From NCBI GenBank assembly GCA_001873365.1, contig MNYZ01000093.1:504-64503 (forward strand): a DNA stretch of 64,000 bases. The letters are read 5' to 3'. The first letter of the stretch is position 1. Each line of letters opens with the position of its first letter. The notes under the pieces are model-generated. The model saw nothing but the letters and a program-made list of their open reading frames with translations. It did no database searches and was not told the origin of the DNA. Source of the stretch: Oscillatoriales cyanobacterium CG2_30_40_61. GTDB taxonomy: Bacteria > Cyanobacteriota > Cyanobacteriia > Cyanobacteriales > Microcoleaceae. The position numbers were made by a program, and so were the translations under genes. Of this stretch, positions 6,980-45,300 are shown piece by piece.

Positions 6980-7312
6980 TTAATTTTTGACTGGATTAGC
7001 TTGTTCCATACGAAAGCGGGCCGCCACTTGCCAACATTCTGTTAATAGTTTATGCCAAGGCATTAATACCGTAATTTCTATTCCCACTTGCCCCCCGGTC
7101 GCGTGAAACAGGGTTTTAGTCGCTATCACCTGCTGTTGGGCTTGGGTAATTCGGTTCAGGAGGTCGGATTGTTGCGGCTGGGACAAAAAGGACATCTCCT
7201 CCGTTTCTAAAAGATGGCGCGATCGCTCAAACCAGTATTCAAAATCCTCCAGTAGCGGTTCTAAGATCGATTTGAGAAGCTCTGACTCTTCGGGCAAGTT
7301 GGAACTTAGCAT
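6980..7312 (-). CDS. DUF2605-like cyanobacterial protein
   Basis: LLKSILEPLLEDFEYWFERS...MPWHKLLTECWQVAARFR. The ATG at 7312 is the likely start. Confidence 0.8.
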   Translation of the reverse strand: MLSSNLPEESELLKSILEPLLEDFEYWFERSRHLLETEEMSFLSQPQQSDLLNRITQAQQQVIATKTLFHATGGQVGIEITVLMPWHKLLTECWQVAARFRMEQANPVKN

Positions 7313-7601
7313 GGATGGTTCGATTAAGACTTCAGTTAAGACAATATTAACACTCTTTACATTTCTTAATAATTTTCTTAACAAAAGTTTTATAGCCGTT
7401 GACGATCGCCCCCTACTCCAGTCTTTCCTAGCTAACCAGAAAATCCCCCAGGAGCAGTCTCCCCTCGCTGAAAATCAACCATAGTAAAGGTTTCAATTGT
7501 TTTAGAGAATGACACAGATCCAGCCCGGAATCAACCCTCAACTCCTAACAGATAGACAATTCCTAAATAATTGTTAAGTTTTTCAATTTAACCTGAAAAA
7601 G

Positions 7602-8214: not shown

Positions 8215-10494
8215 ATGTCCGTTTTTCGTAATTTGATGGCTGTGGGAGTGAGTGGAGCAATTACTTTAATCAATGTGGGGCCAGGAACAGCAGTTCCTGC
8301 CCCCGTTGGCTCTCAGGATAATTGGCCCAACTCGAATACAACTCAACCCCAGGGGTTTAAACAAAATCCTACAAAATTGTATCCGACTCCAGCTCAGGTA
8401 GAAGCGGGTCTGGAATTATTGTCCACGGATTCAACATCAACCCCAAAGGAAGATTCTGGCGCTGTAGTCATAGATGCTACGGCACAGAAACCACAACAGA
8501 GTTCTAACTCTACACCGGAAACAGCCCCTATAAACAAAGTGGAAAGCGTTTCTAATCAAACGTCTTTACCCTCAGAAATCCTAAATTCTACTTTTAAGCA
8601 AAATCCTAAAAAATCTCAATTAGGAGTTCCTACTCCTAGCCATCGGATCATCGATAATCTATTGATCACATCGGACTCCGTTACCCGGTCTTCCGCGCCA
8701 TCGGAGGTGTCTGCGCCAGTTTTTAAACAAAATCCTACAAAAATTGCTCAACAGCCCGGATCAAACCCGACGGCATCCACTGTGATTGACACAACAGCAG
8801 ATAGCACCCCAACTCCGACTGCTAGGGTGAACCCCGTCTTTAACTTGCCCCATCCCCTGGGAAATAATTCCCTATCCTCACAAAGCGATACTCTGCAAGA
8901 GATTGAAGTCGCACTACCAAATCCCTCTACCCAAGCTGCCACCCTTACTGATTCTGTAAATAGAGTCCGGCAAGCTCAACCTTCCCAACTGGCTCAGGTC
9001 AGTAGACCTGCCTTGGAGGTTCCTGATCTGACCCCTCCCACGACCCCGTTTCCGCCTCCGACTCCCAACGGCACCTTACAAACTAATCCGCCCCGAATTC
9101 TGCTCCCAAGTAGTGATCCCCTGTATCGACCCACCTTACCGGAACAGGTGAATATTGAGGAAACCGTCCCCGTCACGCTTCAACAAGCGATTGATTTAGC
9201 AATTCGGAATAATGAAAGTATCAGTATTGCTCAACTACAAGTTGAACAAAGCTTGGCGACGTTGAGGGAATCTCAGGCGGCTTTATATCCGAGTTTGGTT
9301 TTTCGTTCGGGTTTTTCTCGCAATGTCTCGGCGGCGGAGGACTTACAAGTTCGCGCTCAAAACCGCGCCCTCCGAGTGGATCGGTTCAACGGTGTTCAGG
9401 GGGCTGACCAGAGGCAATTTCAGACCCGCTATGGAACCTATTCCTTTGATAATTCCTTTCAATTGCAGTACGACTTAGGAATTAATGGCTTGAGAGGAGC
9501 CAGAATTAAAGCCTCAGAAGAACAGTTACGGATTCTGGAATTAAGGTTAGAAACAGCCTTAGAAGAAGTCCGATTTAATGTGGCTCGTGCCTATTACAAT
9601 TTGCAAGAAGCCGATGCGGCGGTGGAAATTCAAGCGGCCGCTGTGCGAAACTCTCAAAAGAGTTTAGATGATGCCGAAGCCCTGGAGCGGGCCGGAGTGG
9701 GAACCCGTTTTGAAGTCTTGCAAGCTCGTGTCACCCTGGCGAATAACCAACAGGATCTGACTAATTCCCGGCGAAGTCAGTTACAAAGTCGGCGGGAATT
9801 GGTGGCGCTTTTGAATATTGATGAAAATACGAATTTATTGGCTGCTGACCCGATTGCTTTGGCGGGAGCTTGGGATTTAACCTTGGAAGAAACTATTGTT
9901 CAAGCCTATCAAAATCGGGCGGAGTTGGAAGAACAGTTAGCCGAACGCGATCGCGCTCAACAGTTACGTCGGGCTGCTCTGGCCGCCACTCGCCCGAATG
10001 TTACGGTGGGGGCTACTTATAACCTCCTGGGTAGAATTAATGATAACCAGGATTACCGGGCTGTACGTGGCTGGGCTGATGGTTATGATGCTCAAGTCCA
10101 GTTGTCTTGGAATTTCTTTGATGGCGGTGCGGCCAAAGCTCAAGCCAGACAGAGGGAATTAGATATTGGTATCGCGGACGAGCGTTTTAATCAGTTACTC
10201 AATCAAATTCGTTTGGATGCCGAACGGGCTTACTATGATCTCCAAGCTAACTTTGATAATATTCAAACCTCTAGTTTGGGGGTTGAGGAAGCAACGGAAG
10301 CCTTACGTTTAGCACGTTTACGGTTTCAAGCCGGGGTAGGAACTCAGTTAGAAGTGATTAACCAGGAAACGGACTTAACCCGTGCCCAAAACCGACTCCT
10401 AAACGCCATCATCAGTTATAACCGCGCTCTATCGGCTCTACAACGGGCTGTCAGTAATCTTCCGGGTAATATTCTGTCGGATTCTCCTTTGTAG
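8215..10494 (+). CDS. TolC family outer-membrane efflux protein with a long low-complexity N-terminal extension
   Basis: TLQQAIDLAIRNN, RFNVARAYYNLQ, ARLRFQAGVGTQLEVI and YNRALSALQRAV are OMF repeat patterns. Confidence 0.9.
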   Translation: MSVFRNLMAVGVSGAITLINVGPGTAVPAPVGSQDNWPNSNTTQPQGFKQNPTKLYPTPAQVEAGLELLSTDSTSTPKEDSGAVVIDATAQKPQQSSNSTPETAPINKVESVSNQTSLPSEILNSTFKQNPKKSQLGVPTPSHRIIDNLLITSDSVTRSSAPSEVSAPVFKQNPTKIAQQPGSNPTASTVIDTTADSTPTPTARVNPVFNLPHPLGNNSLSSQSDTLQEIEVALPNPSTQAATLTDSVNRVRQAQPSQLAQVSRPALEVPDLTPPTTPFPPPTPNGTLQTNPPRILLPSSDPLYRPTLPEQVNIEETVPVTLQQAIDLAIRNNESISIAQLQVEQSLATLRESQAALYPSLVFRSGFSRNVSAAEDLQVRAQNRALRVDRFNGVQGADQRQFQTRYGTYSFDNSFQLQYDLGINGLRGARIKASEEQLRILELRLETALEEVRFNVARAYYNLQEADAAVEIQAAAVRNSQKSLDDAEALERAGVGTRFEVLQARVTLANNQQDLTNSRRSQLQSRRELVALLNIDENTNLLAADPIALAGAWDLTLEETIVQAYQNRAELEEQLAERDRAQQLRRAALAATRPNVTVGATYNLLGRINDNQDYRAVRGWADGYDAQVQLSWNFFDGGAAKAQARQRELDIGIADERFNQLLNQIRLDAERAYYDLQANFDNIQTSSLGVEEATEALRLARLRFQAGVGTQLEVINQETDLTRAQNRLLNAIISYNRALSALQRAVSNLPGNILSDSPL

Positions 10495-10561
10495 TGTTGA
10501 AATGTTAACTTTTTGTAATAATTGGAAAGGGACGCTATGTTAATGCAGCTAGGACATCAAA

Positions 10562-10870
10562 ATGGGTAATATCAGATTCGTTAGTGAAAACAAGGAAATT
10601 ATTGCTGCGGATGGGGCAAATCTTAGACTTAAAGCCCTAGAAAACCAGATTGACTTATATACCTTCACGGGCAAAATGATGAATTGTGGGGGTTATGGTC
10701 AGTGTGGGACTTGTATTGTGGAAATTGTTGAAGGGATTGATAATCTCCCGCCCCGCACGGAGGCTGAAGCCCGCATTCTCAAGAAAAAACCCGATAGCTA
10801 TAGATTAGCCTGCCAAACTATTGTTAATGGCCCTATTAGTGTTCAAACTAAACCCCAAAAGCGCAAGTAA
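10562..10870 (+). CDS. 2Fe-2S ferredoxin-like protein
   Basis: [11 protein letters not shown] and RLACQ. Confidence 0.9.
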
Positions 10871-10892
10871 TGGGTAATGGGTAATAGGTAAT
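10869..10892. repeat. STRR-type heptamer tandem repeat (GGTAATG/GGTAATA)
   Basis: taatgggtaatgggtaataggtaata. Related tracts occur near 52128-52160 (complement strand) and 53207-53222. Confidence 0.75.
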
Positions 10893-11041
10893 ACAAACAG
10901 TTTACCTCTGGGACTTGATCTCGAACCTTTCGGGGTCATGTCGACCGAGAAACCGGGTTTTTTAGATAATATGTGGGTCATAACTAAGTATTTTCGGAAA
11001 AAAACCCGGTTTCTTTGGTTGGGTGCGTAAGTTCTAAACCC

Positions 11042-31086: not shown

Positions 31087-31288
31087 ATTAACTCAAGTAA
31101 AGAAAATAGATTTTTTTATGACCTGATCTTGATTTTTTTACCTAAATATTAGTTTTGTCAAAAGACAGATTGTCAAACTTAAGCACACTGATAAATGTTT
31201 ATGGACGGGTTTATTGAAATTCGGGTGATTCACAAAGATTAAATAGAACCTGTCCCTACCAGTGATAACTAATAACTGATTATTGATT

Positions 31289-32476
31289 ATGTCTGAAACT
31301 ATTGTTGTTAAAATTGGTACTTCGAGTTTAACCCAGTCAGCAACTGGACATTTAGCCCTATCGACCTTAGCCACATTAGTAGAAACCTTGACCGGACTGC
31401 AAAACCAGGGTTATCGCGTGGTTTTAGTGTCTTCGGGGGCGGTGGGAGTGGGACGCGATCGCTTAGGATTAACCGAACGTCCCCGGACTATTGCTTTAAA
31501 ACAGGCTGTAGCCGCGGTGGGTCAAGGTCGTTTAATGCGGGTTTATGATGATTTATTTAGTACCTTAAAACAACCAATTGCTCAGGTTTTACTAACTAGG
31601 GGAGATTTAGTACAACGCAATGGTTATGTGAATGTTTATAATACTTTTCAACAACTTTTAAAATTAGGGGTAATTCCAATTGTTAATGAAAATGATACCG
31701 TTGCAGTCGATGAACTAAAATTTGGAGATAATGATACGCTTTCGGCTTTAGTTGCGAGTTTAGTAGAAGCGGATTGGTTATTTTTATTAACCGATGTAGA
31801 TCGATTATATTCGGCCGATCCTCGGGAAAATCCTAATGCACAACCGATTAGTTTAGTAACTAATATGGAACAACTAGAAGAATTTCAAGTCAAAACGGGA
31901 GATTCTCGCAGTAGCTGGGGAACCGGAGGGATGATTACTAAAATTGAAGCCGCTAGAATCGCCACGGGATCGGGGGTGAGAACAGTAATAACTGAGGGAA
32001 AATATCCTCAAAATTTAGAAAAAATTCTCCAAGGGGAAGCCATTGGTACGCAATTTGAACCCCAGAATCGACCCGTTAATGCTCGCAAACATTGGATTGC
32101 AAATGTATTAGTTCCTACGGGAAAAATATATTTAGATGCGGGGGCGGTTCGGGCAATTTCTCAAGGAGGAAAATCCCTATTGGCGGCGGGAATTACTCAA
32201 GTTGAAGGTGAATTTAATCTTCAGGATTCTGTCCAAATTTGTAATTTAGACGGACAAGAAATTGCTAGGGGATTAGTTAATTATAGTCAGGGAGAATTGC
32301 AAAAAATTAAAGGTTTACATTCGGATAAAATTCCTGAGATTTTAGGTTATGACGGGGCGGATACGGTGATTCATCGTGATAATTTAGTCGTATTATCCCC
32401 ATTATCTATAACAGGGAACAGGGAACAGGGAACAGGGAACAGGGAACAGGGAACAGGGGGAAAAATTTCACTATAA
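31289..32476 (+). CDS. proB: Glutamate 5-kinase with PUA domain
   Basis: [36 protein letters not shown] and GTGGMITK. Confidence 0.97.
32411..32459 (+). repeat. STRR-type heptamer (ACAGGGA) x about 7, inside the proB 3' end
   Basis: Six perfect units plus one near-perfect unit, translated as [15 protein letters not shown]. Confidence 0.92.
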
Positions 32477-32513
32477 TCAATGCTTTTTTAAAATCAATTT
32501 GAGCTGGTTAATT

Positions 32514-32831
32514 ATGTCACTTTATGATAAAATATACGAGGTTGTCCATCAAATTCCTAGGGGAAAAGTCGCTACCTATGGGCAAGTTGCAGAACTCGCG
32601 AATCTCAGTAGAAAAGCTCGTTTAGTCGGTTATGCTTTATACAAAATTCCGTTAGAAACCACAGATATTCCTTGGCATCGAGTGATTAATGCTCAGGGGG
32701 AAATCTCTCATTCAGTATGGCGTAAAGGCACAGATTATCTTCAGCGATCGCGCTTAGAATCAGAAGGTATTCAATTTAACACCCAGGGTAAGATCAACCT
32801 TTCCCAATATCTATGGAAACCTACGGTTTAA
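32514..32831 (+). CDS. Alkyltransferase-like (ATL/MGMT family) protein
   Basis: IPRGKVATYGQVA and IPWHRVINAQG. Trp replaces the catalytic Cys of PCHR, as in ATL proteins. Confidence 0.9.
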   Translation: MSLYDKIYEVVHQIPRGKVATYGQVAELANLSRKARLVGYALYKIPLETTDIPWHRVINAQGEISHSVWRKGTDYLQRSRLESEGIQFNTQGKINLSQYLWKPTV

Positions 32832-33047
32832 AAATTTGGGATTTAAGCCAGAAAGACCGTTTTACTGCTAGAAAAGCTGCGAATTGATCATGCAGCATCT
32901 TGCCAATTCCCGATTCCCTGCTATAGTGTGATATCGGCTAATGTTTGATATAGTTTTAGGGCGAAATGCCGAACTTGCAAGCAAAACCGAACTATAATTC
33001 CTGCATGGCAAATCACCCCTACCAGGAGCATCGATCAGGAGGTAAAA

Positions 33048-33647
33048 ATGGCTGAAATCACAAAAGAAGAAATGCGAGAGCGTTTGGGCAATATTGACCA
33101 AATTCGAGATATCATATTTGGGTCGCAACTGCGGGACTATAACAGTAGGTTTGAGAAGATCGAGTCGGATTTGGCACTATTACAAGAAGATGCCCAGGAT
33201 CGGGTTGAACAACTCAAGACTATTTTAACCGCAGAAATCAAGTCTGTTGTTGAGAATTTAGACAAAAAAATTAAAACCCTGAGTTCAAATTCTCAGGAGG
33301 AGTTAACGGATTTAAGACAACAGGCTGATCGACTTAATCGGAAATTTTCCAGTAGTATTGAGGCGTTAGATGAGGCCTTAGATAGTCAAACTACTTCCTT
33401 GCGGGAAGAATTAGGACAAACCCGTGATCAGTTACAAGACGAAGTTCGCGGTCTGAAAAATCAAGTTTTAGAAGAACTAGAACGTCGATTTACTTTATTA
33501 ACAGAAGCCAAAATTTCCCGCGATGATATGGCTGAAGTTCTGTTTGAAGTCGGGATGCGATTAAAGGGGACTGAATTTGTTCCGGCTATTAAACAGGCGG
33601 TCGATGAAAAAAATTCCGGTTTTGCCCTCCCAGAACATCATCTATAA
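33048..33647 (+). CDS. All-helical coiled-coil (apolipoprotein-like) protein
   Basis: AGGAGG RBS, N-terminal LGNIDQIRDIIFG, then continuous heptad-like helices. Confidence 0.8.
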   Translation: MAEITKEEMRERLGNIDQIRDIIFGSQLRDYNSRFEKIESDLALLQEDAQDRVEQLKTILTAEIKSVVENLDKKIKTLSSNSQEELTDLRQQADRLNRKFSSSIEALDEALDSQTTSLREELGQTRDQLQDEVRGLKNQVLEELERRFTLLTEAKISRDDMAEVLFEVGMRLKGTEFVPAIKQAVDEKNSGFALPEHHL

Positions 33648-33663
33648 TTAATTTGGTCAAACT

Positions 33664-36258
33664 ATGACCTTTTCTCAGGGTGATTTAAGTCAAAATGATC
33701 AACAAAAGGGGATTTCATCTCAACAAGATTCATTGGATCAGGTTGAGAGTGATCCTCTGGAATTGTTGATTGATTTATTAATGGATTTAAGCGATTTTAA
33801 TGATTCTGATCCCGATTCTTCCTCCTCTTTACCCTTAGAAGATCAACAAAGCCTCAATATTTTAACACCAGATCCGATCCCTTCTCAACTAGAATCTCCG
33901 AACCCAATTCCATCAATTCATCTGTTATCTTCTGGAAAGTTAAAACCGGAAAATGATTTAATTTTGCGACTACTGCCTTTACTGGAAAAACCGCCGGCTG
34001 GGGCGATGGATGTTGATTATTCAGTCAGCGATATTGAAGAAGATTTAGGTGAAATTTCTGCCGAAACTTCAGCTAAACTAGAAGAAAATCAGGATATTAT
34101 TGAAGATATTAGTACGAGTTTACCCCCAAATCAAACAGATAGGATAAATTCTGCTAATTTAGAGAAATCTTTACCTGAAAATACCACATCAAAACCTCAA
34201 TTAAAATCCCAAAGTTGTTTAGCAAAATCTGCCAATATTCCAGAGATAAATTCTGTTTCTAATTCTAATGACCCTCTGGAGAAATTGCAAGAGTTAATGT
34301 TTGGGTCTAATCTCGGCGATGACTTAGATAACTTTAAAAGCCGTCTGTTCAACTGTGAGTTGCCAGAAGTTAGAGAATTAATAGAAAATATTAATCGTCA
34401 ATTAAGTCAGATTCAATTCCAAATTTATGAACCAGAACAATTAATTGAACTTTTACTTCCTACCATTGGTCAACTTTTGAACTTAAAAGTAATTGAGTCC
34501 AAAGACGAATTAATTCAAGCATTTATTCCAATTATTGATGAGGTAATTAAAAGGAAAGGTCAAACCGACCGACAGGCGATGAGTGCGGCTATTGCTGATT
34601 TAATTCCCCAAGCAATTAAACAACAAATTAAAAATTCTCCTAAAGAAATTGCTGAAGCTTTGGGGCCAGAAATTGGGGCAGCAATTCGAGAACAAATTAA
34701 AATTGATCGGAATGAAATTGCCGTAGCTTTAGCACCAATGATTGGACGCAGCATTAAAGAACAAGTGACTTTAGAACGAGATTCAATGGTAGATGCACTG
34801 TATCCGGTAATTGGCAGTACAATTACTCGTTATTTAGCAGAGGCTATTCAAGAAATTAATGAAAAGGTCAGTCAAGCCTTTAGTGTAGAAGGGTTACAAC
34901 GAAAAGTTAAATCCAAAGTTCAAGGAGTATCGGAAGCGGAACTTATTTTAAGAGAAGTCAGACACTTTATTGTACAAGCGGTGTTTTTAATTCATAAAGG
35001 TTCGGGTTTAATTATTGCTGAAATTAAACAACCGGATCAATCTCAAATGGAAGCGGAAATGGTGGCGGGAATGTTAACCGCAATTAGAAGTTTTGTTAAT
35101 GATTGTATTAGTCAAACCGGGGAAGTTTCCGAACTGAATGAAATTGAATATGGAGATTGTAAAATCATCCTAGAAGTGGCGGGATATTGTTATTTAGCAG
35201 TAGTAGTAAAAGGGGAACCTCCGAAAGCATTTATTAAAAAAATCCGTCAGACTATGGCAAATTTAGTTATGAAATATAGTCAGCCGATTAAAGACTTTGA
35301 TGGTGATCCTAATTCGGTTCCTGAAGGAATTATTAGTCAGCTTGAAGCCTTGATCAGAGTTGTAGCCCGTTTACAGACCCAGCAAAAGCCAATGACTTTA
35401 TTAATTTTGGGTTCTGTGGTTTTGAGTTTGATCCTAATTCCTTGGGGAATCCATCAATATCGACAACATAATTTGCGTCAGTTAGAAACAACATTAACCA
35501 CCACTTTAGGAGCGGAGTCTGAGTTATCAATTTATACTTTAAAGGTTAAAGCCCAGGGAAGAACCTTAGCATTAGAGGGGAAAGTTCCCAACGCTCGATT
35601 AAAAGATAAAGTTGAAAAAATTGCCCAAGAAACGGCTCCAAATTTTCAAATTAATAATCGGATTATTGCAGTTAAAGTTCCTCCCGATCCGATCAAAGTT
35701 GCTGCTGAAGTTAAGCAAATGGTGACTATAATGAATCAAATTAGTGGGATATCAATTTCTGCTGATTATCAAAATTCCCAAGTGAATTTGAAAGGAAAAG
35801 TGATTAAATCTGAAGATATTCAGAAAATTACTCAAGCTTTTCAGAAAATTGAAGGGGTAGATTCGGTAATTGCTAATCTAACGGTGCAACCTCTACCAAT
35901 AGCCACTAGAATTTATTTTGGTTTTGGTTCGGCGGAATTAGTCTTAAAAGATATTCGAGGTAAACTTGTGCCTCTGGCTGAATATTTGAAGCGATATCCC
36001 GATCTCAAATTAACAATTATTGGTTATAGTCATGAACAGGAAAAATCTCGAAAACATCCTGAGTTAGCCTTAGAACGTGCTCAAACTATCCAAAATGTTT
36101 TAGAGGATTTGGGAATTGATCGGCGACGCATAGAAACAGTTGGTAAAACTGAACGCCCAGGGGGAGTTGATCCAAATCAAGAACTTTGGTTGAGTCAAAC
36201 GGTTTTATTTGAGATAATACCCTTACAGTTTGAACAAAATAAACCCCAAAAACTATGA
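33664..36258 (+). CDS. Single-pass membrane protein: disordered N-terminus, 22-residue helical repeats, putative longin/roadblock-like domain, TM, two BON-like domains and an OmpA-like domain
   Basis: TM segment MTLLILGSVVLSLILIPWGI, BON-like LALEGKVP and VNLKGKV, and OmpA-like IYFGFGSAEL...LTIIGYS...LALERAQTIQNVLEDLGID. Confidence 0.8.
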   Translation: MTFSQGDLSQNDQQKGISSQQDSLDQVESDPLELLIDLLMDLSDFNDSDPDSSSSLPLEDQQSLNILTPDPIPSQLESPNPIPSIHLLSSGKLKPENDLILRLLPLLEKPPAGAMDVDYSVSDIEEDLGEISAETSAKLEENQDIIEDISTSLPPNQTDRINSANLEKSLPENTTSKPQLKSQSCLAKSANIPEINSVSNSNDPLEKLQELMFGSNLGDDLDNFKSRLFNCELPEVRELIENINRQLSQIQFQIYEPEQLIELLLPTIGQLLNLKVIESKDELIQAFIPIIDEVIKRKGQTDRQAMSAAIADLIPQAIKQQIKNSPKEIAEALGPEIGAAIREQIKIDRNEIAVALAPMIGRSIKEQVTLERDSMVDALYPVIGSTITRYLAEAIQEINEKVSQAFSVEGLQRKVKSKVQGVSEAELILREVRHFIVQAVFLIHKGSGLIIAEIKQPDQSQMEAEMVAGMLTAIRSFVNDCISQTGEVSELNEIEYGDCKIILEVAGYCYLAVVVKGEPPKAFIKKIRQTMANLVMKYSQPIKDFDGDPNSVPEGIISQLEALIRVVARLQTQQKPMTLLILGSVVLSLILIPWGIHQYRQHNLRQLETTLTTTLGAESELSIYTLKVKAQGRTLALEGKVPNARLKDKVEKIAQETAPNFQINNRIIAVKVPPDPIKVAAEVKQMVTIMNQISGISISADYQNSQVNLKGKVIKSEDIQKITQAFQKIEGVDSVIANLTVQPLPIATRIYFGFGSAELVLKDIRGKLVPLAEYLKRYPDLKLTIIGYSHEQEKSRKHPELALERAQTIQNVLEDLGIDRRRIETVGKTERPGGVDPNQELWLSQTVLFEIIPLQFEQNKPQKL

Positions 36259-36782
36259 TTTCTAAAAAAATTTGCTTAGTTGGTGATTTTGGAGTTGGAA
36301 AGACCAGTTTAATCCGCAGATTTGTGGATAGACAGTTTAGCGATCAATATTTGTCTACCGTTGGAGTCAAAATTTCTCGAAAGATTGTTGAACTGGCTGA
36401 AATGAACTCAAAAATAACTGGATCTGTACAATTGTTAATTTGGGATATTGAGGGTCATACTAAATTTAAAGCGATCGCCCCGAGTTATTTACAAGGAGCG
36501 AGTGGTGTGGTGATTGTTGCAGACGTTACCCGACAGGAAACAATAGAAAGATTACCTGAACATATTAATTTATTTCTCTCTGTGAATCCCAAAGGATGTA
36601 TAGTGATAGCATTGAATAAAATTGATTTGATCGACTCAACAGAACTTGAACATCTAATCAAACTAGCCCCTAATTTGAAGCAGTATGATCAGATTTTGTC
36701 CAGCCATCAAACTTCCGCAAAAACTGGAGATCATGTAGATACAATTTTCTATGAGTTATCCCAGAAATTTATCTATAGTTAA
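36255..36782 (+). CDS. Stand-alone Ras-superfamily (Rab-like) small GTPase
   Basis: G1 GDFGVGKT, G2 YLSTVG, G3 WDIEG, G4 NKID and G5 TSAKTG. It is 175 aa with no CAAX tail and overlaps the previous stop codon (ATGA). Confidence 0.93.
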   Translation: MISKKICLVGDFGVGKTSLIRRFVDRQFSDQYLSTVGVKISRKIVELAEMNSKITGSVQLLIWDIEGHTKFKAIAPSYLQGASGVVIVADVTRQETIERLPEHINLFLSVNPKGCIVIALNKIDLIDSTELEHLIKLAPNLKQYDQILSSHQTSAKTGDHVDTIFYELSQKFIYS

Positions 36783-36820
36783 AGAATTACTTCTAGTTTT
36801 TTTGTGTTCTGGGATGAGTT

Positions 36821-38698
36821 ATGAATAACCTTTTAAGAAAGATCTTAGCACCCAAAAAAATCGAATATTTAACCATTAACTCGGAGTTAGTTATTGTAGA
36901 GTCCTCCTGGGGAGTCGCCCGGTTTGCAGATTCCCCAGAACAATTACAATTAGGAGAAGATGTCTGCATGGCTTTTCCTGAGTTAATTGGATTAGAAGAA
37001 ACCTTTAATAAAATTTTATTGAGTCAAATCAATCAGTTTGAACTGAAAGGAATTTCTAGGACAATCACTCAAGAAAATACAATTTATTTTGATATTTATG
37101 TTTTGAAAAATCCTGATAATTCTTGCCATAACCAAGAACTATTGATTGTGTTTGAAGATACAACAGAATCGATTTTAAAGGAACAAAAAATTACTCAGGT
37201 TGCTAAGGAATATGGATTGGCTTTAAGTGCTTTAGAAAAAACTAAAATATATTTAGATAAAATCATTAATTCGATGACAAATATATTAATTGTCACAGAT
37301 GACCAAGGAATGATCAAAATTATCAATCAAGCTACATCGTTTTTATTAAAATATTCAAAAGCAGAATTAATCGGGCAATCTATTTTAACTATTTTTAAAG
37401 ATAATCAACTTAAAAATTATCCCCAAGTCAATCAATTTTTATTATCTGCTGATCTATTAATGCCTGTTGAAGTAATTTGTCAGACCAAAATAGGAACAAA
37501 TTTTCCCGCATCCTTTTCCTGTGCAGCCATGAATTTTGATCCCCATGATTCCCAGGAATTTGTTTGGATTGGTCAGGATATGACCGCACAAAAACGAGTA
37601 GAATTTCAGTTGTATCAACAAGCGGAACGTGATCGCATCTTAAAAAGAATTACACAACATATTCACCAATCTTTAAGTTTACAAGAAACTTTACAAACAA
37701 CGGTGACTGAGGTTCTGGGATTTTTAAATGTGGATCGGGTTTTAATTTATCGATTTTACTCCTCAGAAAAAGGACAAGTAATTGCTGAATCCGTCAGAAA
37801 TTCTTCTCTGACTTCCCTGGACAATATTATTTTTAGTTCTGAGTTTAATTCCTTATTATTATCTCATTTTCAAACAGGTAAAATCGATGCTTTTGATAAT
37901 ATTTATCAGGTTTCAGTTGACTCTAAATATTTAGATTATTTAATTCAATTAAAAGTAAAATCTAGTTTGATAGTCCCGATTATAATTTATGATGCTTCTG
38001 TTTCACAACAGTCTAGCAATAATAATCAACTTTGGGGATTATTAATCGCCCATCAATGCCAGCAAACCCGCCATTGGGAAGTCTGGGAAACAAACTTATT
38101 AGAAGAATTAGCCCTACAAATTGCCATTGCACTACAACAGGCTGAACTTTATCAACAATTACAAATTGTCAATCAAGAATTGGAACAGTTGGTTATTGAA
38201 GATGGGTTGACAAAAGTGGCAAATCGTCGTCAGTTTGACCGGGTACTTGATCACGAATGGAATCGCTGTAGACGAGAAGGAGTCATTCTATCCCTAATTT
38301 TACTAGATATTGATTATTTTAAACAATATAATGATAACTATGGACATTTAGCTGGAGATTTTTGCTTACAACAAGTTGCTCAAGTTTTACAGAATGTGAT
38401 TCAACGGAATACCGATTTAGTGGCTCGTTATGGGGGGGAAGAATTTGCTATCATTTTACCCAATACCGATATCAATGGAAGTATGCACCTGGCTGAAAAA
38501 ATTCGCCAAGGAGTGGAAGCATTGCAAGTGGAGCATCTCAAATCAGAGGTGAGTAGTTATGTCACAATTAGTATTGGAGTAGCGAGTTTAATTCCGATTG
38601 AAGATCTTACTCCTAAAACTTTGGTTTCTCAAGCTGACCAAGCTTTGTATAAAGCCAAAAATAATGGGCGCAATTGTATTTTTATTGCATCCAGATAG
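36821..38698 (+). CDS. Diguanylate cyclase: N-terminal PAS-like domain, PAS, GAF and GGDEF
   Basis: DGLTKVANRR, DIDYFKQYNDNYGHLAGD and RNTDLVARYGGEEF (RxxD I-site plus GGEEF). The GAF reads DRVLIYRF...LWGLLIAHQC. Confidence 0.93.
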   Translation: MNNLLRKILAPKKIEYLTINSELVIVESSWGVARFADSPEQLQLGEDVCMAFPELIGLEETFNKILLSQINQFELKGISRTITQENTIYFDIYVLKNPDNSCHNQELLIVFEDTTESILKEQKITQVAKEYGLALSALEKTKIYLDKIINSMTNILIVTDDQGMIKIINQATSFLLKYSKAELIGQSILTIFKDNQLKNYPQVNQFLLSADLLMPVEVICQTKIGTNFPASFSCAAMNFDPHDSQEFVWIGQDMTAQKRVEFQLYQQAERDRILKRITQHIHQSLSLQETLQTTVTEVLGFLNVDRVLIYRFYSSEKGQVIAESVRNSSLTSLDNIIFSSEFNSLLLSHFQTGKIDAFDNIYQVSVDSKYLDYLIQLKVKSSLIVPIIIYDASVSQQSSNNNQLWGLLIAHQCQQTRHWEVWETNLLEELALQIAIALQQAELYQQLQIVNQELEQLVIEDGLTKVANRRQFDRVLDHEWNRCRREGVILSLILLDIDYFKQYNDNYGHLAGDFCLQQVAQVLQNVIQRNTDLVARYGGEEFAIILPNTDINGSMHLAEKIRQGVEALQVEHLKSEVSSYVTISIGVASLIPIEDLTPKTLVSQADQALYKAKNNGRNCIFIASR

Positions 38699-38786
38699 AG
38701 GGTTCTTGCTTTAATTGCATCTACTAATTAAAAAAAAATCTAACAATCAAATTAGAAAAAAGTTCTTTATCATCAATCCAGGGATT

Positions 38787-40952
38787 ATGAACCATTTATT
38801 TAAAAACTTTTTAATAGCACGAAAAATTGATTATCTAGTGATCGATCCAGAGTTAAAAATACTGGATTTTTCTCAAGGAGTTATTCGATTTACTGAAGGT
38901 TCAGAAGTTTTAAATCAAGGAGAAGATGTACAATATTACTTTCCCGAATTGATTGGAACAGAAGATATTATTGATGCCATTATTCAAGGGTATCAAGATT
39001 ATTTTGAATTAAATGCTATGAGTCGGCAAATTGAGAAAACAACATCAATTTATTTTAATATTTACTTTCTGGGTGTTTCCATTCAAGGAGAACATATCCC
39101 CGAATTAATGTTACTATTCGAGGATGTGACACAACGAATGGAACTAGAACAGGCTTTAGTTCAAGAAACTAATGAATCACGATTACTTTTAAATGCCTAT
39201 TCTCATTCTCAACAATATATTGATCGAATTATTACCTCCATGGAGGATATTTTAATCGTTACCAATCAACAAGGTATGATTAAAAAAGTCAATCTCGCTA
39301 CTTTATCCCTATTAGAATATAGTCAATCGGATTTAATTAATCACTCTCTTGCTTCTTTTGTAGAAGATGATACTTGTTTGCAAGAATATTTAAAGGAATC
39401 TTCTCTGAAAAAACAAGACTTTTTATTTAAAAATTTGGAGTTAACCTGTCAGAAAAAACATGGCGGTAAAATTGTCCTAGAATTTTCAATCTCGACCTTA
39501 ACTACTGATACGGATGATTCCCTAGACTTTATTTATGTGGGTCGAGATATTACCGCCAGAAAACGCGCTCAACAACGGATGTTTACTCAGTATCAAATTT
39601 CTCGGATTCTGTCTGAAGCTCCGAATATTAATGAAGCTCTCCTACAGATTTTGCAATCCACTTGTGAAAGTTGGGGATGGGTTTTAGGAGAAGTTTGGAT
39701 GTTGGAAAAATTTTCAGAAGCACCGTTAATTTTAGGGAATAAAATCTCTGAAACTAATAGTTTTTCCCGCAACCATCCCGATGTTAAATTGGAGTGTATT
39801 AAACATTGGGTTAACTCTAAATCCGGTATTGATGAAATTCAAGAACTCTATCAAAAAATTAACCTAGATTCTAGTATAACTTTACCCAGTAAAATTTGGC
39901 ATAGTGGTTTTGCCCATTGGGTTGAAGATGTGATGGTTAATGACCAATTTACTCAAAAAGATATTGTCCAAATTCTGGGATTACGCGCTGGGTTTGGATT
40001 TCCGATTAAAGATGGAAAAGAAGTCTTAGGGGTGATCACTTTTTGGGGTACAGAAATTTGTTTTCCCGATCCGGAATTGATGCAAACCATGACTACAATT
40101 GGCAGTCAACTCGGTCAATTTATTAAACGAAAATTGGCTGAAATTGCTCTCCAATATCAACAACAACAAACAGAAAAATTACTTTTAAATATTCTGCCGG
40201 AAGCGATCGCAGAACGTCTAAAAAAAGAAGAAAAAACCATAGCAGAACATTTTTCTGAAGTCACGGTTTTATTTGCTGATATTGTTGGATTTACGCAGAT
40301 TTCATCTACCTTAAGTCCGATTGCTTTAGTGAATTTACTCAATGAATTATTCTCAGCTTTTGATCGATTAACCGAAAAATATGGCTTAGAAAAAATTAAA
40401 ACTATTGGTGATGCTTATATGGTGGTGGGCGGATTACCCGCTCCCTGTCCCAATCATGTGATCGCGATCGCCGAAATGGCTTTAGATATGCAAAAGGCAA
40501 TTCTTGATTTTAATGAAACTCATGATCAAGTATTAAGTTTGCGCATTGGCATCCATAGTGGGGCAGTGGTTGCGGGAGTGATTGGGATTAAAAAATTCCT
40601 CTATGATTTGTGGGGAGATACGGTCAATATTGCCTCGCGAATGGAATCTCACGGGTTAGCAGGACGGATTCAAATTAGTGAAGATACCTTCCATCTTTTA
40701 CCAGATCAATATGTTATATTCAAACGAGGGATAATTTCAGTCAAAGGCAAAGGAGCAATGAATACTTATTTTTTATTAGGCCGAAAAGGAGAAAAATATC
40801 TTCCCATTATTGAGCAAGTTATTCCGTCAAAAAATCAATGCAAAAATGCTGCGCCACAGCATTTAGTTGAAGTGATTCATAATAAAATTCAAGACGGCTA
40901 TCCCCTAAAATTCGATGAAATTACAGATAGCTCACAGGATTTCCAGATTTAG
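38787..40952 (+). CDS. Class III adenylate cyclase: N-terminal PAS-like domain, PAS, GAF and cyclase
   Basis: LFADIVGFT, EKIKTIGDAYM and YDLWGDTVNIASRMES. The Lys/Asp purine-specifying pair indicates ATP rather than GTP. The ATG at 38787 aligns with the start of the DGC. Confidence 0.92.
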   Translation: MNHLFKNFLIARKIDYLVIDPELKILDFSQGVIRFTEGSEVLNQGEDVQYYFPELIGTEDIIDAIIQGYQDYFELNAMSRQIEKTTSIYFNIYFLGVSIQGEHIPELMLLFEDVTQRMELEQALVQETNESRLLLNAYSHSQQYIDRIITSMEDILIVTNQQGMIKKVNLATLSLLEYSQSDLINHSLASFVEDDTCLQEYLKESSLKKQDFLFKNLELTCQKKHGGKIVLEFSISTLTTDTDDSLDFIYVGRDITARKRAQQRMFTQYQISRILSEAPNINEALLQILQSTCESWGWVLGEVWMLEKFSEAPLILGNKISETNSFSRNHPDVKLECIKHWVNSKSGIDEIQELYQKINLDSSITLPSKIWHSGFAHWVEDVMVNDQFTQKDIVQILGLRAGFGFPIKDGKEVLGVITFWGTEICFPDPELMQTMTTIGSQLGQFIKRKLAEIALQYQQQQTEKLLLNILPEAIAERLKKEEKTIAEHFSEVTVLFADIVGFTQISSTLSPIALVNLLNELFSAFDRLTEKYGLEKIKTIGDAYMVVGGLPAPCPNHVIAIAEMALDMQKAILDFNETHDQVLSLRIGIHSGAVVAGVIGIKKFLYDLWGDTVNIASRMESHGLAGRIQISEDTFHLLPDQYVIFKRGIISVKGKGAMNTYFLLGRKGEKYLPIIEQVIPSKNQCKNAAPQHLVEVIHNKIQDGYPLKFDEITDSSQDFQI

Positions 40953-41008
40953 GATAAAATAGTCAAACCCTTGGTAATTTACAATTTTCTGACACCTTAA
41001 AAATTTAA

Positions 41009-42133
41009 ATGACCTTAATAGAATCTTGGACAAATCAGTGGCGTTTCCAACTGGAAAATGACTACCCAAACTCTAGTCAAGACAAACGGGAAAGTATCAT
41101 TAATTGGTTACTAGGAGAACATTTTACGACCTTAGATTCTCTCCCTATTAACCAACAAGAAAGAATCCAATTAGGGTTAAACTTTCGCTATCAAATTCTG
41201 CAACAGCGCTATTTAGATACGCCGCCGGAAAAATCCTATCGAAATTTAATGCAGCGATTAGGGAGTTTAATGATTCTACGCCAAAAAGTTCGTCTTTGGG
41301 TGGCAACCAGTCGCGATCGCCAACGTCAAGTGGTGGATGTTTTACAAGAAGTGATACAGGAAATGTTGCATAGCGATCGCTATTTACAACAACAAATTCA
41401 ATGGATTTCTCAGTGTACAAATGACCGACAATTAAGCAATGCTTTACTATTCACAACAGTAGAAGAATATTGTCTCCGTCCGATTCGGAATCAACCCCTA
41501 TTAGTCTATCGATTTGTTAACTATTTACGTCGTTCCCAACGGGGAGGATTAACCCAAGTTCCCGCCGGAGAATGGATTAAACAATTATCCGATGAAATTC
41601 TCTCAGAGGAAACCGAAGACACCATTAGTTTATTAGATAATCAAGCTATTTCTGAATACGAAGATGAGCAATATTTTCAAAACCAACAAAACCAACGATT
41701 AAAAGTACAGGCGGAATTTGAAGACTATTTAATTAAAAACGTAGATTCAACGGCGGCGGAATGGTTGCGACTGTATTTACAAGGATTATCCCAAGAAGCG
41801 ATCGCTCAAAAGTTAAATTTACCGATTAAACAAATCTATCGACTCCGAGAAAAAGTTAGTTATCATGCGATTAAAAACTTCACCTTAAAACAGAATCCCG
41901 AATTAGTGACCAGTTGGTTAGGAACCTCGGTATCAGAACATCGTTTAGGATTAAATTCCGAACAATGGGAACAATTTTGGCAAGGTTTAAACCCCAATCA
42001 ACGTCAAATTATTGAACAATTAAAAGCCGGAGAAACCCTAGAAACTATTGCTAAAACCCTAAACTTAAAAATTACCCAAATTCAGCAGGAATGGACTACA
42101 ATGTATCTAATGGCTCAAGATATTCGGAATTAA
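41009..42133 (+). CDS. HetZ-related protein (sigma-factor-like, two C-terminal HTH regions)
   Basis: RESIINWLLGE, YRILQQRYL, LVYRFVNYLRR, LRLYLQGLSQEAIAQKLNL and GETLETIAKTLNL. Confidence 0.75.
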   Translation: MTLIESWTNQWRFQLENDYPNSSQDKRESIINWLLGEHFTTLDSLPINQQERIQLGLNFRYQILQQRYLDTPPEKSYRNLMQRLGSLMILRQKVRLWVATSRDRQRQVVDVLQEVIQEMLHSDRYLQQQIQWISQCTNDRQLSNALLFTTVEEYCLRPIRNQPLLVYRFVNYLRRSQRGGLTQVPAGEWIKQLSDEILSEETEDTISLLDNQAISEYEDEQYFQNQQNQRLKVQAEFEDYLIKNVDSTAAEWLRLYLQGLSQEAIAQKLNLPIKQIYRLREKVSYHAIKNFTLKQNPELVTSWLGTSVSEHRLGLNSEQWEQFWQGLNPNQRQIIEQLKAGETLETIAKTLNLKITQIQQEWTTMYLMAQDIRN

Positions 42134-42206
42134 TATACTGGGTTTAACCCCTTCTCTATTTTGGTTGTAGTCCCAGTAACACAAATTAGGTTAAAATAAT
42201 ATTGAT

Positions 42207-42308
42207 AGGACTTACGCACCAAACCGGGTTTGGTGAACGAGAAATCCAGATTTTATCCGCAAAATCATGGCCAGAAACCCGGTTTCTTTGGTCTTGTGCG
42301 TAAGTCCT
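42207..42308. mobile_element. 102-bp MITE-like element with TIRs AGGACTTACGCA...TGCGTAAGTCCT enclosing a pair of AAACCGGGTTT palindromes
   Basis: The 12-bp TIRs are perfect. A degenerate homologue lies at about 10910-11036, and a left-end-like copy near 3478. Confidence 0.75.
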
Positions 42309-42363
42309 GATTGATCAATACAGCAACCTCTAAAAAATCTCCTGTTTCCCATTTTGAAAACCT

Positions 42364-45300
42364 ATGATTCCCCAAAAACTGACCCTAAAAAATTTCCTCA
42401 GTTATCGAGAAGCCACCCTAGACTTTAGTGGATTACATACCGCTTGTATTTGTGGTTCCAACGGGTCAGGAAAGTCATCTTTATTAGAAGCAATGGCTTG
42501 GGCAATTTGGGGGGAAAGTCGGGCAGAATCAAAAGATGATATTATCTATATGGGGGAATTAGAAACCCAGGTTGATTTTATATTTATTAGTCAGGGAAAC
42601 CTATATCGGGTAATTCGTAATCGTCGCCGAGGTCAATCGGGAGCCTTAGAATTTCAAGTAGCAACCACCGTTTTACAAGAAATTGAAGATTTAGATCAAA
42701 TCAAGTTTCGCACCCTCACAGAAAAGGGAATAACTGTCACTCAACAGAAAATTATCGACTACTTAAAACTAGATTATGATACCTTTACTAATTCCGCCTA
42801 TTTGCGTCAGGGAAAAGCGGACGCATTCATGATCAAACGTCCCGCCGAACGGAAAGAAATTCTGGCAAATTTATTAAAATTAGATCAATATGATGGTTTA
42901 TCAGAAAAAGCTAAAGACTCAGCCAAAAGTTATAAATCCCAAGCCGAAATTTTAGAACAAACCCTAACCAGTAACCAAGTCCAAATTGATCAAAAAGGTC
43001 AACTGGAACAGGATATTATTCAACTACAAAATACAATTGATCAGCTTCAAGAAAAACAAGCCCAAGACCGAGAGCAATATCAACAGCTACAAGCCCAACA
43101 ACATCATCGTCAAGCTTGGGAAAAGTTATTAACCGGACAACAACAACAGCATCAAACCTTTGCTCAAGATTATCGCAGATTACAACAGGAATTAACTACA
43201 ACTCAACAGCAAAATCAAGAATTAGAAGCAGTATTACAACAAGAAACAGAAATTCAAACCGGATATAATAATTTTATCACCCTACAAACCACCGAAGAAA
43301 CCCTATCGGCTCAATTTAAAATCTATCAAGATTCCCAACAACAACGCCAGCAATTACAAGAACAACAACGCCAATATCTAAACACCCTACAACAGCAAAT
43401 TCAAGGTCTACAAGCTCGTTTAGAAGCGTTAACCCAACAGGAGCAAGATTACTCCCAAATCTTCAGCCAAAAATCCGATATTGAAACGGGATTAGAACAG
43501 TTACAAACCGCTCGTAATCGGTTAACCCAGTTTGATCAATTACAATTAGAAGTTACCCCGATTTTACAACAGCGTCAACGGCTACAAACGGAGTTAGATC
43601 GGGCTCAATCTCGTCAACAAGCTCGGTTAGAGGAATTAAAAACCTCCGTGGGAAAATTGCAACGAACTCTCAACCATCATCGCCCCCAATTAGAACAAAA
43701 ATCCCAAACTATTGCTAATCAAATTATTGAACTCGATAAGAAGAAAGTTTATCAACTCAGAGTCAGGGAAAAAGGACAAGAACGTCATGGTTTTATTGAC
43801 CGCTTGAATACGGTTAAACGGGATTATGAAGAAAAATTAGTCGAACTAGATCAGAAGATTAAACTATTATCAAAATCGGAATCTGAAGCAACTGAAACCG
43901 AAGAATTACCGTTATTGCGATCGCAGTTTCCCCCTTGTCCACTTTGCGATCGCCCCCTAGACGAACATCACTGGAATTTAGTAATTTCTAAACAGCAAAA
44001 CCAACAACAGGAATTCATAAATCAAATTTGGGTGATCCATGAACAGTTAGTAGTTGCTGATCGAGAACTTAAAATATTACAGGAGGAATATCGACAAATT
44101 CAAGAGGATTTATTACCCTACGAAGAATTACGAGAACAACGGGTAAAAATTCAAGCTCAGTTAGAATCCTTAGATAAAGATGAACAACAATTACAACAAT
44201 TAATATTAGAAGAAAAAGCCGTTCAAAATATTTTAGATACGGGAGACTATGCAACGGATTTATATGCAGAATTACAGGATTTAGAGCAGAAATTAAGCCA
44301 ACTAAATTATAATGAACAAAGCCATGCGTTAGCCAGGAATGAGGAAAAACGGCATCGTTGGGCGGAAATTAAATATAGTCAAATTCGCGATGCTCAGGAT
44401 AAATTAACAAAAATTCAGACCCAAAAACCAGAATTAGAAACCCAAATTCAAACCTTAACCCAAACCTTAACCGAACAAAAAAACAATTCTGAAATACAAC
44501 AAGAAATTATTACCTTAGAACAAAAAATCAGCCAAATGGGTTATAATGTAGAGGAACATAATCGCATCCGGGCGGAGTTACGTCAAGCTCAAATTTGGTT
44601 AACTAGAACCGAACAACTCAACCAAGCCAAACAACAATATCCCATCCTACAAAAACGCCTTCAAGAGTTAGAAACCATCACCCAAGAAAGGGTAAAAAAC
44701 CTACAAGCAATTCAAGGACAAATGGAACTATTACAACAGCAATTAAAAGCAACTCCCGACCCGACAGAATCATTAAAACAATTAGAGCAGTTAATTCAAC
44801 AACAACAGCTAAAATTAGATAGTTATTTAGGTCAATTCGGAAGTTTACAACAACAACAAACTCAATTAGACAATTTAAACGCTCAACAAATCGAACTTAA
44901 AACCCAATTAGATACCGCCCGTCGTCAATATCGAGTTTACGATGAATTAGGAAAAGCCTTTGGTAAAAATGGGATTCAAGCCTTAATGATTGAGAATGTT
45001 TTACCACAATTAGAAGCAGAAACTAATCAAATTTTATCTCGATTATCTGCTAATCAACTCCATGTTCAATTTGTTACCCAGCGCACTAGCGGGCGCGGGG
45101 GAAAATCATCAAAAAATACCGCTAAAATGATTGAAACCTTAGAAATTTTAATAGCAGATGCGCGGGGAACTCGTTCTTATGAAACCTATTCCGGGGGGGA
45201 GGCTTTTAGAATTAATTTTGCTATTCGTTTAGCCCTAGCAAAATTATTAGCACAACGGGCGGGAACTTCTCTACAAATGTTAATTATTGATGAGGGATTT

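Follow-up and report, generated by a model that had tools for sequence, protein, structure and literature searches.

A Planktothrix-type Group 1 Rup GTPase module followed by two predicted cyclases that share an N-terminal domain

Group 1 Rup GTPases, the closest described relatives of the locus reported here, were defined computationally by Wuichet & Søgaard-Andersen in 2014, together with a coiled-coil protein, a protein joining a domain of unknown function (DUF) to a transmembrane (TM) segment and an OmpA domain (DUF-TM-OmpA), and a signalling output (PMC4316618). The GTPases display eukaryote-like G motifs and lack the glutamine of motif G3 (PMC4316618). Their output is "typically" a diguanylate cyclase/phosphodiesterase fusion or a histidine kinase, and its N-terminal region carries an invariant glutamine that was proposed to act in trans (PMC4316618). 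The gene order DUFY > DUFX:OmpA > Rup is given in Table S2 of that study for Anabaena, Nostoc, Cyanothece and Acaryochloris, and its authors proposed an analogy to the conservon in which the GTPase is taken as the output (PMC4316618). No member of Group 1 had been characterised as of 2014 (PMC4316618), and no later experimental work on Rup GTPases was found in the literature searched by name, by member locus tags and by related terms. We describe here a locus at positions 33048-42133 of a 64,000-nucleotide stretch of Oscillatoriales cyanobacterium CG2_30_40_61 (contig MNYZ01000093.1), hereafter the window. By gene order, domains and motifs it is very probably a Planktothrix-type Group 1 Rup module with two tandem effectors.

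The locus shared with the published description the DUFY > DUFX:OmpA > Rup order and a fourth gene encoding an output with a conserved-Gln N-terminal region. It differed in its two tandem effectors, one of which appeared to be a class III adenylate cyclase. An adenylate cyclase output is mentioned neither in the Group 1 Rup paper nor in its supplement, the latter containing neither "cyclase" nor "adenylate", and that description also lacks tandem effectors, BON domains and a fold of longin/roadblock type in DUFX (PMC4316618). The four-gene layout (genes 1 to 4) is thus already known from the 2014 computation (PMC4316618), whereas the N-terminal domain common to both cyclases, the adenylate cyclase output, the tandem effectors, the predicted longin/roadblock-like fold and the RNA bridges found in Microcoleus are new here. 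An earlier note on this DNA had known of no characterised system with this layout; it remains correct that none is experimentally characterised, but the layout itself was described as Group 1 Rup in 2014 (PMC4316618).

The module was composed of co-directional genes on the + strand. Gene 1 (33048-33647) encodes a cytoplasmic coiled-coil protein of 199 amino acids (aa), the "DUFY" of the Group 1 Rup module, and gene 2 (33664-36258, 864 aa) a single-pass membrane protein corresponding to "DUFX:OmpA". Gene 3 (36255-36782, 175 aa), which shares its first 4 bp with the end of gene 2, encodes the Rab-like "Rup" GTPase. It is followed by effector 1 (gene 4, 36821-38698, 625 aa) and effector 2 (gene 5, 38787-40952, 721 aa), which display PAS and GAF domains followed by GGDEF and class III adenylate cyclase domains, respectively. 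Gene 6 (41009-42133, 374 aa) encodes a HetZ-related protein 2 and is a syntenic neighbour lying outside the conserved module. The six open reading frames (ORFs) and their spacings (16 bp, a 4-bp overlap, 38, 88 and 56 bp) had been reported in the earlier note and were borne out by the ORF list, the 88-bp value with the ATG at 38787 as gene 5 start; Pfam and NCBIfam bore out the domains named there (coiled-coil, BON/OmpA, GTPase, diguanylate cyclase, adenylate cyclase and HetZ-like). The arrangement is far beyond chance; the coiled-coil/OmpA/GTPase triad recurred in every neighbourhood examined.

Both window cyclases opened with a module-specific domain of ~125 aa, termed here N-dom, which was located at 36821..37210 in effector 1 (motif FPELIG…FELKGI.R…Y.DIY) and at 38787-39179 in effector 2 (both + strand), with 42% identity between the two. 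The pattern FPE[LF][IV]G was matched twice in the 64-kb window, in genes 4 and 5 only, against a shuffle expectation of 0.00. An exhaustive HMMER search gathered an N-dom family of 471 clusters at 50% identity, whereas a word-index search recovered two proteins only. In nearly all of the 150 clusters listed among the 471, N-dom was located at the extreme N-terminus. Sixty-six full-length representatives displayed 30-31 histidine kinases, 14 GGDEF domains, 13 cyclases and one sigma-54 activator as outputs. In the effectors downstream of the GTPase, N-dom was usually followed by a PAS domain, sometimes with GAF, and the helix after it displayed two conserved glutamines, Gln122 and Gln126, in genes 4 and 5 as well as in effectors of other genera. 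As read from these architectures, a constant N-dom in front of swappable outputs is the signature of a dedicated input domain. Rare internal copies were also encountered (P0296, P0343, P0346, P0350, P0352 and P0390), located after receiver, Ser/Thr kinase or winged-helix domains or before a SpoIIE phosphatase. P0343 had the order receiver-N-dom-PAS-histidine kinase and P0390 receiver-N-dom-histidine kinase; further layouts were Ser/Thr kinase-N-dom-GGDEF, receiver-PAS-GAF-N-dom-PAS-SpoIIE phosphatase and winged-helix-N-dom.

The distribution of the module was surveyed in 80 related species-representative loci by degenerate DNA-motif scans combined with Pfam spot checks. The module was widespread, with at least 594 matching stretches in species-representative genomes, and was found in mat- and bloom-forming filamentous cyanobacteria. 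Its constant core was composed of a coiled-coil protein of ~200 aa, a BON/OmpA membrane protein of ~800-1000 aa and a GTPase of ~177 aa, after which came one to three N-dom signalling proteins with a histidine kinase, GGDEF or class III cyclase output. Of the 80 loci, 69 carried the N-dom motif on the + strand beyond the GTPase, mostly right next to it, and two to three copies were present in 40. At least one of the loci without a match to the pattern (L011/L084, Limnospira) carried the variant FPELFG. At least 47 of the 80 loci displayed a cyclase metal-site motif on the strand of the GTPase and 1.3-4.9 kb downstream of it, and ten displayed a downstream GG[DE]EF; the two occurred together in the five Planktothrix-clade loci, and a Microcoleaceae metagenome-assembled genome (MAG; L038) displayed both outputs by Pfam. 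Kinase counts were taken from the Pfam spot checks and from the census of 66 representatives, the H-box DNA motif being too strict and missing known kinase effectors.

The repertoire of genes after the triad was diverse. The six genes of the window recurred in Planktothrix PCC 11201 and in two MAGs from more distant members of the Planktothrix clade. In Lyngbya PCC 8106 the triad was followed by a PAS-GAF-GGDEF and then a GAF-GGDEF protein, in Microcoleus FACHB-68 by a 2114-aa multi-PAS/GAF protein and in a member of the Leptolyngbyaceae by a PAS histidine kinase. M. vaginatus carried a kinase and then a cyclase, a Phormidium a cyclase alone, Phormidium sp. CCY1219 (L040) two hybrid kinases, and the Microcoleaceae MAG mentioned above a diguanylate cyclase, a kinase and a cyclase. 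In Limnospira (L084, 10626-12149) a 507-aa N-dom-PAS-adenylate cyclase lies directly after the GTPase; this gene was uncalled in the gene collection, and the neighbourhood had seemed effector-free. The earlier note had proposed a functional link between the GTPase and both cyclases. This idea gained strong comparative support, since the shared N-dom marks genes just downstream of the GTPase across Oscillatoriales, irrespective of their output domain. Of the evidence at hand, the shared N-dom speaks most strongly for a joint function of the GTPase module and the two cyclases, and a functional coupling of the GTPase to both appears probable.

The catalytic regions of the two effectors appeared intact. 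Gene 4 displayed a PAS-GAF-GGDEF architecture (PF00990, 181.9 bits); its active-site motif RYGGEEF, read from the translation, is preceded five residues upstream by an RxxD site, RNTD, and gene 4 is therefore a predicted diguanylate cyclase with an intact GG[DE]EF. Gene 5 displayed a PAS-GAF-class III cyclase architecture (PF00211, 225 bits) with the motifs FADIVGFT, KTIGDAYM, YDLWGDTVN and ASRM in its translation. By comparison with the canonical class III motifs, the two metal aspartates, the Lys/Asp pair specifying adenine and the Asn/Arg pair are all present, and we infer a preference for ATP. The longest ORF of gene 5 starts at a TTG (38715), which would give a 745-aa protein and a gap of 16 bp to gene 4. 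The ATG at 38787, with a gap of 88 bp, is the preferred start, since it gives a protein whose alignment with the diguanylate cyclase and with its orthologues begins at Met1; the orthologue of Planktothrix PCC 11201 was called at 720 aa. Within the cyclase domain of gene 5, at 40374-40415, contigs in three sequencing runs ended at 40401 and the end of a different contig of 3930 nucleotides matched there. The pattern suggests that the assembly broke at a sequence common to this and another cyclase gene, or else a strain difference.

Gene 3 encodes a single-domain GTPase of the Ras superfamily (Pfam Roc, 95.7 bits; Ras, 93.8 bits). Its best solved relatives in a PDB sequence search were Rab22A, Rab14, Rab18, Rab1 and Sec4 (E 7e-22), and all 60 best matches listed were of the Rab/Ypt/Sec4 type. 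Motifs G1 (GDFGVGKT), switch I (STVG), G4 (NKID) and G5 (TSAK) were canonical and Rab-like. In G3 (DIEGH) the glutamine was absent, and His68 (36456-36458) aligned with the catalytic Gln of the Rab22A motif WDTAGQ. A phenylalanine occupied the position of Ras Gly12 (36288-36293, residue 12). Both Phe12 and the DxEGH motif, with His at the position of Gln61, were invariant in 23 out of 23 diverse homologues, a pair of residues unusual for a Rab-like protein. From what is established for the biochemistry of Ras and Rab, intrinsic hydrolysis should be poor and the mechanism of the GTPase-activating protein (GAP) type non-canonical, and hydrolysis therefore probably needs a residue supplied in trans. 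The closest relatives of the locus are from Planktothrix, the GTPase being 93% identical to that of P. paucivesiculata, and the junction between the OmpA gene and the GTPase gene was always tight in the neighbourhoods examined.

Upstream of the GTPase, gene 1 displayed weak profile matches of coiled-coil type only (Pfam, NCBIfam). In all neighbourhoods examined, the gene just before that of the OmpA protein encodes an orthologue of ~200 aa. The N-terminus of the gene 1 protein is strongly conserved with Microcoleus, and no homology to the cytoplasmic part of gene 2 was detected (BLASTP E 0.87). Gene 2 was composed of a variable N-terminus rich in acidic residues, Ser and Pro, conserved helical repeats, a predicted longin/roadblock-like domain (34969..35292, + strand; residues ~436-543) located in the cytoplasm just before the TM helix, a single hydrophobic TM span (35392..35454, + strand; residues ~577-597, PMTLLILGSVVLSLILIPWGI, read from the translation) and a periplasmic BON-BON-OmpA-like part (35491..36255, + strand; motif GYSH). 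Pfam detected BON in two stretches (43.9 bits) and OmpA at 43.8 bits (cut-off 27.2). The N-terminus is placed in the cytoplasm and the C-terminus in the periplasm because no N-terminal signal sequence was present. About 76% of the length of gene 2 was conserved across genera, the first ~200 residues being variable, and its cytoplasmic region displayed many invariant columns across 24 homologues.

An AlphaFold2 (AF2) model of gene 2 residues 200-590 had a mean predicted local distance difference test (pLDDT) value of 53, and the TM span fell within its long C-terminal helix. Residues 436-543 formed a beta-beta-alpha-beta-beta-beta-alpha arrangement with pLDDT mostly ~70-86, lower in the first beta-hairpin and one loop. 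Foldseek matched this domain in PDB with the longins Ykt6, Sec22b and VAMP7, AP sigma subunits, the C-terminal domains of RagA/C, LAMTOR, Mon1-Ccz1 and TRAPP (E 9e-5 to 2e-3; target TM-score mostly 0.44-0.69; 25 matches at E ≤ 1e-3). Nothing resembling a roadblock domain was found in gene 2 by sequence (Pfam, PDB phmmer). The model thus provides moderate evidence for a longin/roadblock-like cytoplasmic domain. Longin and roadblock folds are recurrent platforms that regulate small GTPases and are usually regulators rather than targets. The MglB-style analogy suggested in the earlier note fits this predicted domain. The tether to peptidoglycan is less certain than the note assumed. The OmpA match lay above the cut-off, and of the conserved Asp and Arg, which in such domains hold the peptide stem, the invariant Arg was kept, but the canonical Asp is replaced by His, so that peptidoglycan binding should not be assumed. 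This GYSH motif was displayed by gene 2 (domain 35914-36255), Planktothrix PCC 11201 and Lyngbya in place of the family motif G[HY][ST]D, whereas Microcoleus, Phormidium, Limnospira and Leptolyngbyaceae kept the Asp; peptidoglycan binding may be altered in the GYSH lineage.

Several known systems resemble parts of this locus. The actinobacterial conservon (CvnA-D; mfp operon), which counts as a bacterial "G protein system", combines in one operon the kinase-like sensor CvnA, the roadblock protein CvnB, CvnC (DUF742) and the GTPase CvnD. Its GTPase is MglA-like whereas that of the window is Rab-like, and its roadblock protein is free-standing whereas the predicted one of the window is located within gene 2. 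The window membrane protein is not kinase-like and, unlike in the conservon, the effectors carry a dedicated N-dom; neither a HATPase-type membrane sensor nor DUF742 (CvnC) was detected among the six window proteins (Pfam, NCBIfam). The MglA/MglB(/RomRX) system of Myxococcus combines a small GTPase with a roadblock-fold regulator, to which the fold predicted for gene 2 would be alike. However, the window GTPase is nearest to Rabs, the cluster includes no free MglB/roadblock gene, and none of the neighbourhoods examined displayed motility genes. The locus does not belong to either system, though it may work like them.

Likenesses also extended to eukaryotes and to envelope proteins. Eukaryotic Rab and Rag modules (Mon1-Ccz1, TRAPP, Ragulator) likewise combine a Rab-like GTPase with a longin/roadblock-like domain on a membrane-anchored partner. 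In yeast the pair Ras-Cyr1 joins a small GTPase with an adenylate cyclase; in the window the GTPase and adenylate cyclase genes adjoin within one cluster. In contrast to these eukaryotic systems, the window module is bacterial and probably encoded in an operon, and its anchor would extend between inner membrane and cell wall; homology with Ras-association domains was not detected for N-dom. Gene 2 shared the order TM - BON - OmpA-like with ArfA/OmpATb (Rv0899) and matched the NCBIfam profile ArfA_OmpATb_N at residues 623-667. It differed from ArfA/OmpATb and from MotB-type proteins by a cytoplasmic region of ~575 aa before the TM helix, and from MotB by a TM span without Asp and by the lack of a MotA-like partner among the six cluster proteins (Pfam, NCBIfam). 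Some gene 2 homologues are annotated "MotB", a name that derives from the shared OmpA-like domain only.

RNA data were informative in a relative. Short gaps and the lack of convincing internal terminators in the window cluster fit an operon, as weak evidence. In M. vaginatus HSN003 (L068), four rRNA-depleted biocrust metatranscriptomes included RNA contigs that bridged the junction of the coiled-coil and membrane protein genes (7005-7325), that of the membrane protein and GTPase genes (9701-10126) and, twice, that of the GTPase and first effector genes (10290-11022 and 10410-11036), with a depth falling from the coiled-coil gene toward the effectors. The module is therefore expressed in biocrust Microcoleus, and co-transcription of the triad with the first effector is supported in this relative. 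Neither riboswitches nor other known RNAs were found by Rfam in the window or in the M. vaginatus locus. A separate observation in the latter was a region between alaS and the coiled-coil gene (5800-6126) that displayed a word depth of 6e4 to 2.8e5 in the four metatranscriptomes, ~100-fold or more above the coiled-coil gene. This region contained no noteworthy ORF, matched no Rfam family and may represent an abundant unannotated small RNA or leader.

Taken as a whole, the favoured explanation, to which we give somewhat better than even weight, is a Rup module in which a signal passes from the envelope to the GTPase and from there to the two N-dom cyclases. The membrane protein, probably with its coiled-coil partner, would read the state of the envelope or periplasm, and its longin/roadblock-like domain would determine which nucleotide the GTPase carries or where it is located, much like the roadblock/longin platforms for MglA, Rag and Rab. 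The GTP-bound GTPase would then dock on the N-dom of each effector and change c-di-GMP and cAMP synthesis, with the PAS/GAF sensors of the effectors adding cytoplasmic inputs. Hydrolysis would proceed via a residue supplied in trans, for which the conserved Gln after N-dom is a candidate as proposed in 2014 (PMC4316618), and the effector would also act as an off-timer. Direct docking with this direction of signal flow is rated at slightly below even chances. The most complete version, in which an envelope-spanning longin/roadblock platform switches the Rab-like GTPase and the GTPase directly gates both cyclases (and, in other genera, kinases) via an N-dom that also completes the GTPase active site, with each effector as its own GAP, is rated as less likely than not.

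Several points weigh against this explanation. The interactions of the GTPase with its partners are all ones that we infer. N-dom had no Pfam match even at E ≤ 10 and no PDB sequence match, and its profile did not resemble that of the PAS domain next to it (hhalign probability 0.5%); its AF2 model, built from a 2-sequence alignment, was unusable (pLDDT 40). No GTPase-N-dom fusion was found among ten scanned proteins with an internal or offset N-dom, and the conserved glutamines after N-dom could simply be linker residues. The longin/roadblock assignment comes from one model of mean pLDDT 53 with Foldseek E values of ~1e-4 and is invisible to sequence methods, and the canonical Asp of the OmpA-like motif is His in gene 2. 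As for expression, the best-matching "metatranscriptomes" (runs X1-X5, window 31200-43200) included contigs of 68-158 kb, and an 11.9-kb contig of ~90% identity and even depth extended across several genes from 6 kb upstream into the diguanylate cyclase gene; these runs contain genomic DNA and therefore say nothing on RNA of the window cluster. In M. vaginatus, no RNA contig bridging effector 1 (a kinase) to the cyclase was seen in the four metatranscriptomes.

The flow could also be reversed, as in a conservon, with the effectors acting on the GTPase through N-dom as GAP or guanine nucleotide exchange factor. The output would then be the membrane and coiled-coil proteins, for instance envelope attachment, localisation or a cell-wall process, and the cyclases would be set mainly by their own sensors. 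The analogy drawn in 2014, with the GTPase as output (PMC4316618), speaks for it, as do the PAS/GAF sensors of the effectors, the conserved Gln beside N-dom, which suits a GAP role, and the nature of BON and OmpA domains, which bind the envelope structurally and are not classic sensors of ligands. We consider it unlikely, though a serious competitor: the outputs vary (histidine kinase, GGDEF, cyclase, SpoIIE, sigma-54 activator) behind a constant N-dom, which is the usual pattern of an input domain, and longin/roadblock domains are usually GTPase regulators and not their targets. That the cyclases are independent sensors merely located beside the triad, or that the genes form a phage-defence cluster of the Zor or Pycsar kind, is so improbable as to be negligible. 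Chance adjacency is ruled out by the shared N-dom, found near-exclusively downstream of the GTPase. A defence function could be suggested by weak matches of the coiled-coil protein to ZorA tails (NCBIfam E 3.7e-4, 18.9 bits against a cut-off of 190; PADLOC E 1e-5) and by a generic PycC match of the cyclase domain (PADLOC E 4.7e-14). It was rejected, since the Zor matches concerned coiled-coil tails only and were far below cut-offs, no MotA/ZorA membrane part, ZorB or Pycsar effector was present, and the other four proteins had no PADLOC match.

A further possibility extends the favoured explanation to a six-gene unit, with the HetZ-related protein 2 as a transcriptional output reading cAMP or c-di-GMP; the earlier note had counted its gene among the operon members. 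Gene 6 is a clear HetZ_rel_2 (NF037965, 574.7 bits, cut-off 400, profile positions 2-367 of 367), separated from the cyclase gene by a same-strand gap of 56 bp with no terminator-like site between them, and such a gene followed the cyclase in three Planktothrix-clade loci (L086, L029 and L005), the last with a different downstream flank. It was absent from all neighbourhoods outside this clade, namely those of Lyngbya, Microcoleus (three species), Phormidium, Limnospira, Leptolyngbyaceae and the Microcoleaceae MAG. In the two loci whose flanks were examined (L086 and L029), proB and sbcC were equally conserved, so that plain synteny explains the linkage, and the protein displayed HTH-type (helix-turn-helix) matches only, without a detected nucleotide-binding domain (Pfam). 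The six-gene unit is thus improbable, and by its distribution the HetZ-related gene is better seen as a neighbour than as part of the system.

The window locus is flanked by housekeeping genes of the same orientation that are unrelated to it, namely proB, an MGMT-like gene and sbcC. The best sigma-70-like promoter match (32900..32927, + strand; TTGCCA-16-TATAGT with a TG extension) is located upstream of gene 1, in the 216-bp gap after the MGMT-like gene; it is a consensus match alone and hence weak evidence. Two short stretches, 32407-32458 and 42249-42310, were matched by the ends of many unrelated contigs, like dispersed short repeats, at depths of tens to thousands (up to ~7e3 at 32407-32458). 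The former lies within a 3' extension of proB encoding GNREQGT repeats and the latter between the HetZ-related gene and sbcC.

Among the small GTPases of bacteria, the Rup group comes nearest in sequence to eukaryotic Ras and Rab. The present analysis turns the neighbourhood prediction of 2014 into a testable model with a candidate effector domain of ~125 aa, cAMP and c-di-GMP as easily assayed read-outs and a candidate regulator fold. If gating by the GTPase is true, it would couple both second messengers governing motility and aggregation in these cyanobacteria to the condition of the envelope and would constitute a bacterial counterpart of the control of adenylate cyclase by G proteins or Ras. 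N-dom would then be the first effector domain to be defined for any prokaryotic GTPase of the Ras superfamily other than MglA.

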